A model generated the notes under the pieces. That model ran no database searches and was not told where the DNA came from. It worked only from the letters and a program-made list of their open reading frames with translations. A stretch of DNA of 64,000 bases from Chiloscyllium plagiosum. Its lineage: Eukaryota. How positions within the stretch are numbered: position 1 is the stretch's first letter; every line of letters starts with the position of its first letter. Shown here in pieces: positions 4,122 to 60,160 of this stretch. Location: contig NC_057718.1 in assembly GCF_004010195.1 (NCBI RefSeq), positions 92,823,404 through 92,887,403 of the forward strand. Direction: 5' to 3'. Both the position numbers and the translations under genes were made by a program.

Positions 4122-4615
4122 GTGTTGAGAGTGGGGTGCTGGAAAAGCACAGCAGGTCAGGCAGCATCCGAGCAGCAGAAGAATCGACATTTCAGGCAAG
4201 AACCCTTCATCAAGAATGAGGCTTGAGAGCCGAGGAGGTGGAGAAATAAATGGGAGGGGGTTGGGGCTAGGGGGAAAGTGACTGAGAGTGCAATAGGTAG
4301 ATGTAGGCGGGGGTAATGGTGATAGTTCAGAGAGGAGAGTGGAATGGAAATGTGGGAAGGAAGATGGACAGGTTGGACAGTTCATGAGGGTGGTGCAGAG
4401 TTGGAAGGTTGGAACTGGGATAAGGGTGGGAGGGAGGGGAAATGAGGAAATAGGTGAAATCCACATCGATGCCTTGTGGTTGGAGGGCCCCAAGGCGGAA
4501 GATGAGGTGTTCTTCCTCCAGGTGTCGGGTAGTGAGGGTGTGGCAATGGAGGAGGCCCAGGACCTGCATGTCTTTTGCGGAGTGGGAGGGGGAGTTGAAG
4601 TGTTCGATCACGGGG
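4122..4615 (-). mobile_element. Penelope-like element 3' fragment (GIY-YIG C-terminus plus family A terminus)
   Basis: ORF 4327-4611 EHFNSPSHSAKDMQVLGLLHC...LEEEHLIFRLGALQPQGIDVDF; decayed hammerhead at about 4181-4216. Confidence 0.88.
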
Positions 4616-5352: not shown

Positions 5353-5503
5353 TGACATTTCTCCTCTGCCCTGGCCAAAGACAGCTCATATCTAGTGTCC
5401 ATGCCAGTTGGTATTGCCAAACCCCTTATTTCACCACATCACTGGGGTTGCTTTCAGTCGAACCCTCACATCACTTTGACCCTTCAAGGAATTCACTTTG
5501 GAG

Positions 5504-5716
5504 TTGAAAATCACACAACATCAGGTTATAGTCTAGCAGGTTTATTTGGAAGCACTATATTTCGGAGTGGTCTCCTTCATCAGCTGGTTGTGGCCGCCTG
5601 ATGAAGGAGCAGTTCTCTGAAAGTTAGTGCTTCCAAATAAATCTGTTGGACTATAACCTGGTGTAGTGTGATTTTCAACTTTGTCCACCTCAGTCCAGCA
5701 CTGACACCTCCAAATT
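5504..5716. mobile_element. Fold-back PLE-terminus insertion (family B) with two opposed hammerhead motifs
   Basis: Inverted arms (ttgaaaatcacacaac.../...gtgtgattttcaa); hammerheads at about 5553-5583 (-) and 5598-5629 (+); 12-bp direct repeat ttcactttggag at 5492-5503 and 5717-5728. Confidence 0.88.
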
Positions 5717-5939
5717 TTCACTTTGGAGCACAGGGTTACTTATAACCTGCATGTTTCGTCAGGTTGCTTTTCCTGCAGGGGCATACATGAATCTCATGTA
5801 TCTGCATTGGATGCATCTTATGTCTTTTAGCTTGCTTTCTTAGCATTCATTCACTTTGCATTTACTTGGGGCTGATAACCTCTGCATCAAGCATTTCCCT
5901 TTAGCATAGAGGGAGAGGTAGGCGATTGTCATAGTTCAG

Positions 5940-6157
5940 GAGAAAGGGAGGACTGCAGATGTTAGAGTACATTGTCGAGAGTGTGGTGCTGGAAAAGCAC
6001 ATCAGGTCAGGCGGCAACTGAGGAGAACTGACGTTTCGGGCATAAGGAATCGAGGTTTCGCCATTCCTAATGAAAGGCTTATGCCCAAAATGTCGATTCT
6101 CCTATACCTCAGATGCTGCTTGACCTGCTGTGCTTTTCCAGCACCACATTCTCAAGA
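5940..6157. mobile_element. Fold-back PLE-terminus insertion (family A) with decayed hammerheads
   Basis: Inverted arms (gtgtggtgctggaaaagcac.../...gtgcttttccagcaccaca); 15-bp direct repeat attgtcatagttcag at 5925-5939 and 6158-6172. Confidence 0.88.
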
Positions 6158-16899: not shown

Positions 16900-18730
16900 T
16901 AGTGAGAATTGCAGATGCTGGAGAAGTCAGAGTCGATAAAGTGTGGCGCTGGAAAAAGAACACCAGGTTAGGCAGCATCTGAGGACCAAGAGAGTCGACA
17001 CTTTGAGCTTAACTCTTCAATAGGACTGGGGAGGGGCAAGGGGGCTGAGAAATAAACAGGGAGAGGGTGTGTGGGGCTAGGGGAGAGGTAGTTGGGTCGG
17101 CGACAGGGTAGGCGAAGGTAGGAGGTGATGGTGATAGGTTGGTGGGAAGTGTAGAATGGATAGATGGAAAGAAAAATGCATAGGGTAGGACAGGTCAAAG
17201 GTTGGTGCCAAGGCTGAGAGTTGGATCTAGGATGGGGTGGGGGGATGAGAAGTTCTGGTGAATTCAATGTTGAGGCCATGTGGTTGTAGGCTCCCGACGC
17301 AGAAGGTGAAGTGATCCTCCTCCAGATTGGTGGTGGCCTTGTGTAGTTGTTGGAGGAGGCCCAGAATGGACATGTTGTGGGGAGAGTAGAACGGTGAGTT
17401 GAAATTGATGGCCACAGGTAGGTGGGGTTGGTTGTTGCGCATGGATCAGAAATGTTCCCTGAACCATTCTGTGAGTTTGTGCTTGGTCTCTCCCATATAG
17501 AGGAGACCACATCGAGAGCACTGGATGCAATAAATGAGGTTGGAGAACACACAAGTAAATCACGCTGGATTGGGAATGATCCTTTGGGGCCTTGGTCTGA
17601 GATCAGGGGGGTGGTGTGAGCACAGGTTTTGCACCTCTTACAGTGGCAGGGTAAGGTGGCAGGTGTGGAAAGGGGATTCATGGGGAGTATGGACCGAATG
17701 AGGGAGTCACAGAGGGAACGATCCCTACAGAATACAGATAGGAGTGGGGAGGGATATATATTTTTGGTGGTGGTATCTGACTGTAGGTGGTGAAAATGGC
17801 AGTGGATGATACGCTGAATTTGGAGATTAGTGGAGTGGAATGTGAGGACTGGGGGATTCTATCATTTTTGCAGTTGGAGGAGTGGGGTTCGAGGGCAGAG
17901 GTGCAGGAAATGGAGGCATGAGACTGAGCGCATTGTTGATGACAAGGGAGGGGAAATTACGATCCTGGAAGTAGGAGGACCTCTGAGATGTCCTGGAGTG
18001 GAATCACTCACCCTGGGAGAAGATACGGTGGAGATGGAGGAATTGATTGCATAGAAGATCACGATTTTACAGGAGGAGGGTGGGAGGAAATGTAGTCAAG
18101 GTAGCTGTATGAGTCGGTGGGTTTGAAGTAGATGTCAGTGTTAAACCGGCCACTGGAGACGGAAATGGAGAGATCCAAGAAGTGGAGGGAGGTGTCGAAG
18201 ATGGTCCAGGTGAATTTTAGGTCAGGGTGGAAGGATGAACTGTTCAAGCTCCTTGTGGAAGCATGAGGTTGTGCCAATACTGTCATCGATATAGCGAAGG
18301 AAAAGGTAGGGGATGCCAGTGTAGATGTGGAAAAAGTACTGTTCCACATATCCTACGAAAAAGCAAGCATTGCTGGGACCCATGTAGTTAGCCATAGCCA
18401 TCCCTCTGATTTGTAGGAAGTAGGAGGATTGAGAAGATGTTTACGGTGAGGACCTGTTCTGCCAATTGAGTGAGAGGGGAACTGGCTGGGTCAGCAGGAG
18501 AGGAAGAGATGGAGGACTTGGAAGTCTTCCACATGGGGGATACAGGTGTAGAGGGACTGGACGTCCACAGTGAAGATGCAGTGCTGGGGGCTGGGGAATT
18601 GGAAGTCATGGAGGAGGTGGAGAGCATGGGTGACACCTCAGATGTATGTGGGGAGTTTCTGGACCAAGGGGGACAGGGTGGAGTCAAGATAAGTGGAGAT
18701 GTGTTTGGTAGGCCAGGTATAGGTGGAGGT
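16900..18730 (-). mobile_element. Penelope-like retroelement (Neptune-like), about 1.8 kb, degraded
   Basis: RT motif RYIDD at 18282-18296, GMAM..GPS motif, FLDLSISV...DIYFKPTDSYSYLDY, linker PCHCKRCKTCAH, GIY-YIG tail LEEDHFTFCVGSLQPHGLNIEF; family A-like terminus at 16900-17025. Confidence 0.92.
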
Positions 18731-31127: not shown

Positions 31128-31217
31128 AGCATCTTTCTACTCTGAAGAAACTCCTGCCGACATGTTCTGGATTTCTAATGACTGACTTCCAATAAATACA
31201 AACGTCTTCTTTTGTGA

Positions 31218-31352
31218 TTTGGAGATGCTGGTGTTGGACTTTGTACTTTTGGAGCGCTGCTTGACAACCACCTGATGAAGGAGCAGTGCTCCAAAAGGTA
31301 GTGCTTCCAAATAAACCTGTTGGACTATAACCTGGAGTTGTGTGATTTTTAA
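31218..31352. mobile_element. Family B fold-back PLE terminus with most of the left arm deleted
   Basis: Tail ggagatgctggtgttggact, then cacCTGATGAaggagcagtgctccaaaaggtagtg; 13-bp direct repeat tcttcttttgtga at 31205-31217 and 31353-31365. Confidence 0.85.
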
Positions 31353-32386
31353 TCTTCTTTTGTGACATACAGCAGAGAGTGTTCCAATTGACTCTAATTT
31401 TACTCGGGTTCATATCTTTAAATAAAGACTCAACTACTGTCTTAGCAATCCTTGTTGGTTGATTAGTACATTAAGATAAACAAAAGAACACAACATGGTG
31501 GCAGCGGTGTTTTTGAAGAGTCACTGTGAAATGTATAAGCCTCAACATTTTCATGTACAACAGAAGAACTGATGTGGAAGTGACTCACAATATTGAACTG
31601 TGTAAGTGATTCTGCAACACTGTAAGTATCCCACACATAGTCCTTACATCCTTGGATATCATACCTTGCTCCATTAAGCAGGTAGTGTCTCCCTGTAGGA
31701 TTGCTGACCTGGGAAATCATGAGTCTATCTGCTGTGGAGATTTGTGTAGGAATAGCCACCAGATAGCTGATTCCTTGTGTGTAGAATTTGGTATTGTTCC
31801 AAAGACATGAGGCTCCACTCTTGTGGCAGGGCACCTTTTCAGGAGTTTGGGGGTGGGATGGGAAAGGGACAGTGAGAATTAAGCACCTGAGATTGGAATA
31901 AGAAATGAGGCGACCCAGTAACTGCATGTAAAAGCTTGTAGAAGACCTTTTTGTTTTCATTGTTAAATTTACCATTGAAGTTCACAATAATTTTTGAGTT
32001 AAGATTGGTGGAGTGTTTAGAAAACTCAGGAAGGCAGCAACAACACCACCATTGCAACAAACTGTTGCTGGTTAAGATACTGCAAGTCAGGAACTCACAG
32101 GAAATCAGGCTCTGAAGAACTGAGAATGTTGAACATTTGAAGCTTTTACAGAATATACTACTGATTCTGCAAAAAAAGCCACAGATTGACAATTACATTT
32201 CTAATACTTAATGGGACAGCAGCAGGCCTACTGTTTGAGTTCACTCTGTTCACACAACAGAGCCTATTTTCTGGACCTGTATTGTTTTGAACTGGATAAA
32301 CAAGTCACCAGGGTTAAAATTGTTCCAGGCAGTTAAGAACTTCACAGCCTGAACACTTCAGGTTTGTCAGATAATCACCTTAGAAT

Positions 32387-44987: not shown

Positions 44988-45219
44988 TCATGATTTAGAG
45001 ACGCCAGTGTTGGACTGTGGTGTACAAAGTTAAAAATCACACAACACCAGGTTATGGTCCAACAGGTTTATTTGGAAGCACTAGCTTTCGGAGCGCTGCT
45101 CCTTCATCAGGTGGTTGTGGGAGTAGTGCTGAAGAAGGGCTTATGCCCGAAATGTCGATTCTCCTGTTCCCTGGATGCTGCCTGACCTGCTGCGCTTTTC
45201 CAGCAACACATTTTCAGCT
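44988..45219. mobile_element. Chimeric fold-back: family B terminus (-) joined to family A terminus (+)
   Basis: 44988-45120 is family B; 45125-45219 is family A (gCTGAAGAagggcttatgcccGAAAtgtcgattc...). Confidence 0.85.
45079..45113 (-). ncRNA. Minimal type I hammerhead ribozyme motif, intact (family B)
   Basis: CAC-CUGAUGA-A-GGAGC-AGC-GCUCC-GAAA-GCU-A-GUG: stem I CAC/GUG, 5-bp stem II, palindromic AGCU stem III. Confidence 0.85.
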
Positions 45220-50848: not shown

Positions 50849-50948
50849 AGGCCCCCATTCCTGATGAAAGATTTATGCCTGAAATGTCGACTCTCCTGCT
50901 CCTCGGATGCTGCCTGACCTGCTATGCTTTTCTAGCTCAACATTTTTT
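50849..50948 (+). mobile_element. 100-bp family A PLE terminus (hammerhead plus downstream) inserted into CR1
   Basis: attcCTGATGAaagatttatgcctGAAAtgtcga; 13-bp direct repeat ggccctgataatc at 50836-50848 and 50949-50961. Confidence 0.88.
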
Positions 50949-53289: not shown

Positions 53290-53690
53290 ACTGGCATTTA
53301 AAAGCTGCCCCACTCATTGAAGGTCTGGGTCAGAACATGGTGGAGAAGGGGACAATGGCACCATGATTCTCTGATAGGGGACCTGGATGGCTTGGTGGAT
53401 GGAGTGTTGCAAAGGAGAGGAGTGCTCTTCCTGGAGGACAGTCAGGTCCAAGGTCGCCACCCTGGTCAGTGAGGTTTCCTGGGTAGGGAGGAATGACCAG
53501 CAATCCAGAAAGAAAGCCAATGACATTCTCCGCTCTGCCAGGTGAAGTGCCACACCCTTCTCTCAGCCACCTCATACTCTGCTACTTCATTCACCTCCCA
53601 CAAATGCTCAAGCTCTGCTACTCTCATTATTACATGCAACACCTTCCATTACTCACTCTCATCCCTCCCTGGAGCACTTTCAGCAGGTAG
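53290..53690 (+). mobile_element. Degraded PIF/Harbinger-like element with Myb/SANT-like remnant
   Basis: FSDRDLDGLVDGVLQRRGVLF...RNDQQSRKKANDILRSAR followed by AG/GT. Confidence 0.6.
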
Positions 53691-53691
53691 T

Positions 53692-53778
53692 TGCCTGATG
53701 AAGGAGCAGCGCTCCGAAAGCTAGTGCTTCCAAATAAACCTGTTGGACTATAATCTGGTGTTGTGTGCTTTTTAACTT
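53692..53778 (+). mobile_element. Family B PLE terminus (single arm) with intact hammerhead core at 53695-53726
   Basis: CTGATGA-a-ggagc-agc-gctcc-GAAA-gct-a-gtg...tttttaactt. Confidence 0.85.
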
Positions 53779-54379
53779 CATTATCTTTGAAATGCTTAGA
53801 GACATCTGAAGGTTGTGAAAGACATTGTAGCAATTCCAATCTTTCTTTTCTATTCTGAAAAGAAAATGTTCTTCTGCTCCATCTAGGCCAGGGTTGGCCA
53901 GGATTTTCTGTTTGCTGACCGCATTGATGTCCATTGTAGCCTTAGGGCCACATGTACATCTTAAATCCACAGTCCTGCTAATTTACATACTTCTAAGTTA
54001 GCGCTGACAGATCTTTGAGCAGAATTAATCACTAATGAGGCAATAGTCATGAAGCCCCTGGGTCCTTCATGTACAAACAGGAAAAACTGGCAAACAAGAA
54101 ATCTAAACAAAACCGAACTGAGTTTGCTAGACTTCAGTTACTGGATTGACAAGACAGAGCTGCATGTGAGCCTTGAGCTCTCGGTTGACGTTTCTGCTTA
54201 AACAGTATTTTTTCTGTTTCAGTAGCATTTTTCAGAAGGTTTGTAAGCTACATCCAGAATACAAGTAACATTTTCGATCAGTCCCATGGGAAACCCCAGC
54301 AAATTGGTCAAAAGACTGCAGAAAATGTTTACGTCCATTAAATGCTACACACTTGTGAAGAATTAGGTACGAAAAAGGT

Positions 54380-57764: not shown

Positions 57765-58385
57765 TTGGTATGCTTGTCTTTATTGGTCAGCGCATTGAGT
57801 ATAGGAGTTGGGAGGTCATGTTGTGGCTGTACAGGACATTGGTTAGGCTACTTTTGGAATACTGCATGCAATTCTGGCTTCTCTGCTATCGAAAGATGTT
57901 GTGAAACTTGAAAGGGTTCAGAAAAGATTTACAAGGATGTTGCCAGGGTTGGAGGATTTGAGCTATTGGAAAGGCTGAAAAGGCTGGGGCTGTTTTCTTT
58001 GGAGCTTTGGAGGCTGAGGAGTGACCTTATGGAGGTTTATAAAATCATGAGGGGCATGGATAGGTTAAATAGACAATATCTTTTCCCTGATGTGGGGGTA
58101 TCTAAAACTAGAGAGCTTAGACTTAAGGTGAGAAGGGAAAGATTCAAAAGGGGCAACTTTTTCACGCAGAGGGTGGTGCGTGCATGAAATGAACTGCCAG
58201 AGGAAATGGTGGAGGCTGGTACAATTGCAAATTTTAAAGGCATAGTTAGATGCGTGAATAGGAAGGGTTTAGAGGGAGTGAGGGCCAAATGCCAGCAAAT
58301 GGGACTAGGTTAATTTAGAACATTTGGTTGACATGAACAAGTTGGGCTGAAGGGTCTGTTTCTGTACTGTACAGCTCTATTGCTC
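57765..58385 (+). mobile_element. CR1 LINE 3' fragment
   Basis: Closely similar to 6330-6970; ERLKRLGLFSLE..LRSDLMEVYKIM. Confidence 0.93.
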
Positions 58386-58586
58386 TTTATTTCATTTTTG
58401 CGGTAATTGCACTCACAACAAAATAGTACACCAAAAATCACAGCTGAAACTTTAGCCACTAATGCACTAGCAACAAACATACAAAACTGCCAATCAGAAA
58501 ACAAATGTCAATAATTTATCAATGGACAGTTGGCAAGGAACAATTAAACCATTCAAAATACTTCTTCAAAATTCCTTCAATTGCCA

Positions 58587-58803
58587 ATCATGATTGGGAG
58601 ATGCCGGTGTTGGACTGGGGTGTACAAAGTTAAAAATCACACAACACCAGGTTATAGTCCAACAGGTTTAATTGGAAGCACACTAGCTTTCGGAGCGATG
58701 CTCCTTCATCAGGTGATCACCTGTTGAAGGAGCGTCGCTCCGAAAGCTAGTGTGCTTCCAATTAAACCTGTTGGACTATAACCTGGTGTTGTGTGATTTT
58801 TAA
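58587..58803. mobile_element. Young fold-back PLE-terminus insertion (family B) with back-to-back hammerheads
   Basis: 90-bp arms 58627-58716 and 58717-58806 with 2 mismatches; 12-bp direct repeat cttcaattgcca at 58575-58586 and 58804-58815. Confidence 0.93.
58681..58715 (-). ncRNA. Minimal type I hammerhead ribozyme motif, intact (family B)
   Basis: CAC-CUGAUGA-A-GGAGC-AUC-GCUCC-GAAA-GCU-A-GUG. Confidence 0.85.
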
Positions 58804-59127
58804 CTTCAATTGCCAGGACATGGTTTTAAAAATAGGAATAACATTATAAATGCCATTTTAAAATATGCCCTTTAAACTTATCTAAGGTTTCCTGTAAATC
58901 CATCTGATAAATTTGGCAATGAATTCTACCTCTTCTCATGAGCCAGGTGCTAGTGTTATTTATTTCCAACATGTTTGTATGAACTTTGCCTTTTCTCTCC
59001 ATCATTGGAGTGGCAAGTATAATTTTGCTATTGTTGGCATCAAAACAGTTGAAATCTTGATTTGAAGAGTGAAAAATGCAGGAATGAGTACATCTTTATT
59101 CAAGTTTGAGAGACAATCCTGAAAAGA

Positions 59128-60160
59128 AGTCATCGAGTCCTACAGCATTGAGAAAGGCCCTTTAGCCCAAACTGGTCCATGCCAACCAAAATGTCCATCT
59201 ACGCTAACCCCATTTCCCTGCGTTTGGCCCATAGCCTTCTAATCCATTCCTATCCATGTATTTGTCCAAATGCCTTTTAAATGCTGTTAATGTACCCATC
59301 TCAACCCACTTCCACTGGCAGCTCATTCCATGTGCATACCACCCTCTGTATAAAAATGTTGCGCCTCAGGTTCCCTTTTATTCTTTCCCCTCTAACCTTA
59401 AACTGATGCCCTCTAGTGCATAATTCCCCAACCCTGGAAAAGGATTGAGTGCATTCACCTTATCCATGCCTGTCATGATCTTTTTTGCTTCGATGAGATC
59501 TGCCCTCAGTCTCCTACCCTCTAAAGAAAAAGGTCCTATCTTGTCTAAACTCTTCCTATAATTCAGATCCTTGAGTCATGACATATCCTTGTAAATTTCT
59601 TTTATACTCTTTCCAGTTTAATAACATTCTTCCTATAGCAAGGTGACCAAAACTGAACACAATGCAGCAAATGCAGCCTCATCAACGTCCTATACAACTG
59701 CAACATAACTTGCTAACTTCTGTACTCAATGCCCTGACTGATGAAGGCCAGTGTGCCAAAAGCTTTCTTCACTGCCCTGTCTACCTGTGACTCCACTTTC
59801 AGAGAACCATGCACCCAAACTCCAAGGTCTCTCTGTTCCACTACAGTCCTTAAGGCCCTACCATTTACCATGGAACACCTACCTTGATTTGATTTTCCAA
59901 AATGCAGGACCTTACACTTGTCTATATTAAACTTCATATGCTATTTCTCGGCCCACTTCCCCAATCGATCTAGGTCCTGTTGCATTTTCTGACTACCTTC
60001 TTCACTGTCCATATTAAAGCCTATTTCAGTGTCATCTGCAAACTTGCTAAATATACCTTGTACATTCTCATCCAAATCATTGATACAGATAACAAACAGC
60101 AATGGGCCTAGCACTGACCCCTGAGACACTCTACTTGTCACAGGCCTCTAGTCTGACAAT
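59128..60160 (-). mobile_element. CR1 LINE 3' fragment
   Basis: VSQGSVLGPLLFVICINDLD...SKFADDT; MKFNIDKCKVLHFG. Confidence 0.93.

Follow-up and report, generated by a model that had tools for sequence, protein, structure and literature searches.

A 241-base, hairpin-shaped insert at 58575..58815, with a hammerhead motif on each strand and no apparent gene, raises the question of what kind of mobile element it is and how it acquired two nearly identical arms. Its palindromic outline resembles that of a MITE, its motifs suggest a ribozyme cassette, and its long TSD and one-sided tail recall the insertions left by Penelope-like elements (PLEs). Here we weigh these readings against the insert itself, its relatives in the window (the whole 64-kb stretch of DNA analysed) and the family's representation in sequence-read data. 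A PLE stub of some kind, whether its second arm arose by twin priming or by fold-back copying, is very likely. With moderate confidence, we favor a dead stub that was made at insertion, with both cut ends of the target priming reverse transcription. The assignment to PLEs rests on sequence architecture.

Anatomy of the insert

The two arms, each 90 nt long, abut with a spacer of 0 nt and are complementary at 88 of 90 positions, the mismatched pairs being 58699/58734 and 58709/58724. The centre reads GGTGA on one side of the joint and TCACC on the other. Apart from the mismatch positions, these features had been given in a preliminary description of the locus, as had a 40-nt tail on the left only and a 12-bp TSD that overlaps the arm end by 3 nt, and all of them are borne out by the arm coordinates and alignment (Table 1). 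A 12-mer match of such composition at fixed ends has a chance probability near 7e-8. The overlap between the TSD and the right arm is a possible primer-template microhomology, and the self-complementary AT at the centre would, as read from the sequence, be a possible 2-nt microhomology join. We infer that the right arm end marks a first reverse-transcription start and the outer end of the tail a second. Both arms fall in one subfamily, which is recognizable by ATTAAA and two extra bases. Each arm also carries a single private change. The plus strand of the insert has a folding energy of -177.5 kcal/mol (z -25), a value reached by 0 of 200 shuffles. The insert lies between CR1-type LINE ends in AT-rich surroundings (75% and 73% over 40 nt per side).

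Table 1. Features of the insert and of related copies in the 64-kb window
Feature	Position	Strand	Remarks
TSD, left copy	58575..58586	+	12 bp, CTTCAATTGCCA
Putative PLE 'tail'	58587..58626	-	family sequence running 39-40 nt past the arm end, left side only
Left arm, putative pLTR 3' end	58627..58716	- (sense)	5'-truncated 5 nt upstream of the hammerhead core
Family polyadenylation signal	58638..58672	-	AUUAAA 58672-58667, poly(A) addition 58655-58652, GU-rich element 58648-58638
Minimal type-I hammerhead motif, core intact	58681..58715	-	descriptor match
Centre	58716..58717	.	self-complementary AT common to both arms
Right arm, putative pLTR 3' end	58717..58806	+ (sense)	without tail
Second hammerhead motif	58718..58752	+	core CUGUUGA, A6 to U at 58724
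Mirror polyadenylation signal	58761..58781	+	AUUAAA 58761-58766, predicted site 58778-58781
TSD, right copy	58804..58815	+	CTTCAATTGCCA; first 3 nt are the last 3 nt of the right arm
Older two-armed copy (5.5k)	5492..5728	-	tail, 12-bp TSD, different centre
Family copy (31k)	31205..31364	+	12-bp TSD, part of tail, rearranged left arm, intact right arm, different centre
Single tailed arm (45k)	44988..45120	-	adjoins the end of a second hammerhead-like repeat family
Untailed arm with opposite-arm remnant (53k)	53679..53780	.	different centre

The insert had been described as lacking coding sequence, and this holds for the three sense frames of arm plus tail, which are short or stopped. The ATG at the tail end could be the start of a parent ORF. 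By inspection, the minus strand of 58587-58633 resembles a 3' splice site, with a branch-point-like TTTAAC, a pyrimidine tract and an AG at 58616-58615, and the ATG (58591-58589) is downstream of this splice-site-like arm end and tail. To judge from these motifs, the stretch and the ATG could be a PLE intron acceptor and ORF start; if an intron does end there, splicing would remove the hammerhead and the poly(A) signal. The TSD end and tail start also form a 14-bp palindrome (58584-58597), which needs a copy-private change at 58596, where most family contigs have T, and is probably due to chance. None of the five family copies in the window is long, and none has an RT or GIY-YIG ORF next to it. 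Stop-to-stop frames of 45 aa or more number 625 in all, a set in which short exons would be missed; a Pfam search of 116 of the 150 longest returned one CR1-type RT, two sub-threshold matches and no host gene.

Hammerhead motifs

The minus-strand motif in the left arm has a 3-bp stem I (CAC/GUG), the core CUGAUGA (58712-58706) followed by an extra A, a 5-bp stem II (58704-58692), GAAA, and a palindromic GC in place of helix III. Its cut site is predicted after CUA, between 58684 and 58683; registers after CUU or UUC yield no stem I and were dropped. The left arm fits every part of the minimal PLE hammerhead consensus (core, extra base after A9, G10.1-C11.1, palindromic 15.2-16.2). The right arm departs from it at A6, a position that is A in the other six aligned arms, and is predicted from its sequence to be inactive. 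The earlier account of an intact minus-strand core and an altered plus-strand one is therefore accurate as far as the motifs go, with no Rfam match. A minimal-hammerhead descriptor finds four sites in the window, the left arm among them and every one in a family copy; in 50 shuffles it finds 0. Over the whole window, Rfam gives 0 matches at the gathering score, and so no hammerhead model match; matches at E up to 10 were of generic hairpin type (mostly miRNA and snoRNA), far below threshold, and were rejected. The ribozyme call is thus a putative one, with a motif descriptor and the literature as its basis rather than a curated model or assay. MFE folding of single arms did not recover the hammerhead (z -0.4 to -1.9), which is expected because the motif is without helix III.

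Minimal hammerheads as treated in the sections of PMC4209133 used here share with ours the extra base between 9 and 10.1, the G10.1-C11.1 pair, the palindromic 15.2-16.2 and the missing helix III, and the same sections note hammerhead pairs that, like ours, lie on opposite strands, there 100-700 bp apart. Stem I has 4-5 bp in the Schistosoma families described there, against 3 bp here, while our stem II has 5 bp; sharks are not named in those parts of the main text. Such hammerheads are reported to need a same-sense partner, monomers being uncleaved and dimers showing weak cleavage (PMC4209133, same sections). The read data list no position where many molecules begin or end, although a poly(A)-primed library would reveal self-cleavage poorly. 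In our insert the motifs are on opposite strands, and a transcript of either strand has one sense core and its complement, the plus-strand transcript holding the A6-mutant core. A hairpin is predicted for both strands, and in the full hairpin the predicted pairing probabilities of hammerhead stems I and II are below 1e-13. The preliminary description had proposed that this hairpin could sequester both ribozymes. The fold prediction agrees that the core is buried, but any one transcript has only one sense hammerhead to bury. The arms run through the predicted cut, and therefore uncut RNA would have been copied, with the hammerhead motifs likely passengers.

Related copies in the window

BLAST identifies five family copies in the 64 kb, including the insert at 58k. 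All four two-armed copies have different centres. The three complete copies (58k, 5.5k and 31k) all carry a 12-bp TSD that begins after the same arm position, and no TSD was found at the 45k and 53k copies. The tail recurs at 5.5k, at 45k and, in part, at 31k. Eight of the nine arms in the window end 1-14 nt upstream of the hammerhead core, and the ninth is rearranged. Complementarity to the primer at the arm end is present in only two of the three TSD-bearing copies, and no clear microhomology was seen at the other three centres. The left arm at 31217-31265 is a patchwork of a tail piece, a 9-nt inverted arm-end piece and a stem II piece that leads into the right arm, a pattern that suggests repeated template switches in the course of insertion.

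A second repeat family, with the hammerhead-like core CUGAAGA, adjoins the 45k arm at 45129-45216 and has relatives at 53-136, 4125-4221, 6058-6155, 16938-17032 and 50853-50946. Immediately 3' of a degraded frame with weak HTH_animal and GIY-YIG look-alikes is one of its copies; for this frame, which belongs to a family other than the insert's, an Atlas search gave HTH_animal and GIY-YIG as leads, with scores under 0.9.

The family in sequence-read data

We compared the left flank, tail and left arm with four of 24 read sets: X7 (organism A, DNA), X9 (organism B, DNA), X15 (organism C, taken for RNA only by guess) and X21 (RNA). The family is covered by 87,720 contigs in X7, 71,665 in X9 and 13,293 in X15, and by 2,527 of 12.96 million reads in X21, totals that are not copy numbers. 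Mixed flanks begin at 58626, 58628 and 58629 in X7 (535, 526 and 489 contigs), at 58626-58629 also in X9, and at 58589-58590 in X15, which sets the family's two ends about 40 nt from each other. Family sequence goes on beyond the centre in many records, and longer copies therefore exist. In a set of 15 of 65 joints, all are strand switches at differing places, and 12 pair an end at 58711-58716 with one at 58649-58681; on this sample, the family as a whole has more scattered arm ends than the copies in the window. Perfect palindromes are under-represented in assembled contigs, and the share of any one centre cannot be read from them. In rare cases a contig fuses the tail end directly with an arm end on the opposite strand, at 58588-58626 (six in X7, one in X9) or 58591-58629 (five in X7, two in X9), a structure that tandem stubs, circles or self-insertions would produce. 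Searches of metagenome, viral and prokaryotic collections for a 30-nt pattern of the family gave 0 exact matches.

In organism B, one 594-nt contig aligns to 58390-58586 and differs at 5 of 197 positions; it departs exactly at the TSD end and runs on for another 364 nt, a geometry that fits an empty site. If collinear with such a site, the contig would span 58357-59179, reaching from one flanking LINE into the other. Going by this geometry, rather than by the letters after the TSD, organism B likely carries the empty site. For organism A, X7 has no depth over most of the flank. The 58k insert is young; its arm divergence (2 of 90) and the flank divergence (5 of 197) overlap widely.

Origin of the insert

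The insert and its relatives share the main features of EN+ PLE insertions: an inverted, 5'-truncated copy head to head with a pLTR, a 30-40 bp tail at one end only (39-40 nt, on the left), 5' truncation that varies between copies (four of four centres; at least 65 joint types) and, by descriptor, a hammerhead motif in the pLTR. One of the two origins put forward in the preliminary description was a 5'-truncated PLE insertion with an inverted terminus, and this architecture, together with the differing centres, supports it. A typical PLE unit is described in the parts of PMC8557442 and PMC8969392 drawn on here as an inverted truncated copy with a one-sided 30-40 bp tail, and those of PMC3846280 describe 8-10 bp TSDs and inverted junctions with palindromes. 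As far as these accounts go (Arkhipova et al. 2013, PMC3846280; Craig et al. 2021, PMC8557442), our insert resembles the EN+ PLE unit in its head-to-head inverted ends, one-sided 40-nt tail, long TSD, junction palindrome and AT-rich target. It differs in that both halves are ~90 nt, no ORF lies between them and copy number is very high, and its TSD of 12 bp exceeds the 8-10 bp of the rotifer examples (PMC3846280).

Twin priming is the simplest account of the insert. The element's 3' ends face outward against a 12-nt stagger, and both 3' overhangs would prime cDNA, one at the arm-end start, with 3 nt of complementarity, and the other 40 nt further on. The two cDNAs would then be joined at the shared AT, and the ribozyme would be copied uncut, as a passenger. 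A close experimental parallel is Poseidon_Ac (PAc) of Anolis carolinensis (Frangieh et al. 2024, PMC11167929), whose protein, in the portions of that study relied on here, cleaves both strands and extends them, takes uncut RNA as its template and initiates reverse transcription at two internal positions that bound the tail. The likeness thus extends to ends a tail apart, copying of an uncut hammerhead and use of both target strands. The PAc ORF starts in hammerhead stem II, whereas here an ATG at that place meets a stop after 8 codons, and the same portions do not mention a poly(A) site for PAc, while the family here has one (PMC11167929).

The same PLE stub could instead have gained its second arm by self-priming, the first cDNA or antisense template folding back and being copied, with endonuclease resolution leaving the one-sided tail. 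Fold-back has been proposed to explain both the palindromes seen where inverted copies meet (PMC3846280) and the tail (PMC8557442), again in the parts of those papers used here, and in vitro evidence in the PAc study weighs on the other side, both strands being extended from RNA with two starts that match the tail (PMC11167929, in part). The two arms agree at every subfamily-diagnostic position, an agreement that fold-back copying explains equally well, and the asymmetric centres of three sister copies could be former loops. The 58k copy, however, is without a loop: a snap-back loop requires unpaired bases, and with zero spacer its centre cannot be one. The sister centres, by inspection, would also give a snap-back 3' end no pairing. 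We regard fold-back as possible but rather doubtful. The other origin in the preliminary description, a non-autonomous ribozyme cassette, would here be a palindromic unit of retrozyme- or SINE-like kind, transcribed whole and retrotransposed by a PLE enzyme. It has in its favor the very high abundance of the family, the rare 58588-58626 joints and the narrow range of arm ends in the window, which makes copies look alike. Animal retrozymes have moreover been proposed as PLE derivatives, and the non-LTR retrozymes in the consulted portion of that work are likewise short, non-coding, PLE-related and equipped with a type-I hammerhead; they are head-to-tail tandems with two or more same-sense motifs, whereas our insert is head-to-head with one per strand (bioRxiv 10.64898/2026.07.22.740005). 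No head-to-tail units with at least two same-sense hammerheads are present in the insert, and its hairpin leaves the hammerhead stems with the vanishing pairing probabilities given above. An independently amplifying cassette is further contradicted by the differing centres of all four two-armed copies, the outcome that the preliminary description had named as counting against it, and by the many strand-switch joints (15 of 65 listed), and we judge this origin improbable.

The preliminary description had also remarked that the insert looks like a MITE but that its features point to retrotransposition, and we concur. A MITE moved by a DDE transposase recognizing inverted ends would be short, non-coding and palindromic, as the insert is, but the insert has no symmetric terminal inverted repeats, fixed ends or uniform interior: a 40-nt tail makes the ends asymmetric, the arm ends are ragged over 58626-58629 and the centres vary. 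Solo arms and longer one-directional copies exist, the arm has a hammerhead motif and a used poly(A) site, and the common MITE superfamilies have TSDs shorter than 12 bp; this origin is highly improbable. A fold-back chimera of reads is equally hard to credit. Perfect inverted repeats are a known sequencing artefact, but each arm here has a private difference, a TSD stands at both ends, the tail is one-sided, older diverged sister copies have the same layout, and eight organism A runs contain 0.62-0.78 of the stretch's words. We therefore retain a PLE stub, with twin priming as its probable mode of formation.

A polyadenylation site in the arm

On its hammerhead-sense strand, the arm of this family serves as a polyadenylation signal that is in use. 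Among the 2,527 family reads in X21, 922 with the first mate on the plus strand have poly(T) loose ends, 503 at 58652 and 419 at 58655, two positions that may be one site. Depth in the first-mate-plus class climbs from 477 to 1,436 across 58652-58655, with no rise in the other class, and the DNA contigs show no step at the site. Poly(A) addition takes place 12-15 nt after AUUAAA or AAUAAA and ahead of a GU-rich tract, with no templated A-run, and AATAAA or ATTAAA is retained in seven of seven arms examined. Judging by their mix of variants, the poly(A) reads come from several loci, and they are assigned to the family, not to the 58k locus. RNA reads that run past the centre into longer family sequence number 457 plus 123, and fold-back joints are found in 0-3 reads; longer copies thus appear to be the source of most poly(A) RNAs, unless hairpin RNAs go missing from the data.

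The two inferred reverse-transcription starts are 28 and 68 nt downstream of the poly(A) site, and because both follow it, a normal PLE mRNA would hold these starts only near its 5' end. This arrangement could explain why stubs dominate over full copies. We tentatively suggest a run-off model, in which a polyadenylated PLE mRNA has start signals only in its 5' pLTR, and twin priming from them would yield run-off 'strong-stop' cDNAs, with palindromic stubs as the main product. The model as a whole is speculative, and places the transcription start 1-14 nt before the hammerhead, with the start signals just downstream. According to the parts of PMC2377424 and PMC4209133 used here, Drosophila Penelope begins transcription 46 bp ahead of a 75-bp intron whose end lies at the hammerhead; the run-off model needs a start less far upstream. 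No description of this geometry of poly(A) site and reverse-transcription starts was found in the literature searched, whose scope lay outside Repbase, Dfam and the supplements of PMC4209133 and PMC11167929; among the papers listed, PMC6765202 and PMC2678813 mention polyadenylation.

Double-stranded RNA and editing

It had been suggested that the hairpin could feed ADAR or Dicer, and such a fate would have precedent in other animals: in the portions of the sources used, a lizard Penelope and palindromic frog repeats are edited (PMC5625713), and siRNA arises from inverted Penelope copies (PMC3681739). No RNA record of the locus was listed, an absence that speaks neither for nor against its transcription. 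We counted places with A>G plus T>C changes. They make up 6 of 39 in X7 and 8 of 45 in X9, both DNA, and 22 of 77 in X21 (p 0.17-0.20 vs DNA). In X15, which is from another organism and RNA only by guess, they make up 17 of 34 (p about 0.002-0.003). When rows were split by mate class (28 of 40 listed rows tabulated, majority-type and later rows left out), six of eight A>G/T>C rows were higher in the class expected from editing, one of them marginally, and two were not; non-editing changes were equally asymmetric. In the RNA runs, T>C and A>G are raised at the UAG of the predicted cleavage triplet (58684) and at the UAUA of the poly(A) site (58652-58656), the change at 58684 reaching 7.2% in RNA vs 0.8-0.9% in DNA. 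These raised changes could be A-to-I editing or variants of expressed loci.

Implications

As a single locus the insert matters little beyond being a clean example of a described insertion type, and the 58k locus is likely a presence/absence marker between two related organisms. The family is of wider use, as a large natural data set on how PLEs make inverted ends and tails, whether by twin priming or by fold-back, and the geometry of its poly(A) site provides a testable reason for stubs outnumbering full copies. If the run-off model is true, stubs of this kind would have spread very many poly(A) cassettes, able to act in either orientation, and ADAR-edited hairpins through the genome. If such stubs terminate or edit host transcripts, they would represent a sizeable regulatory input in this lineage.
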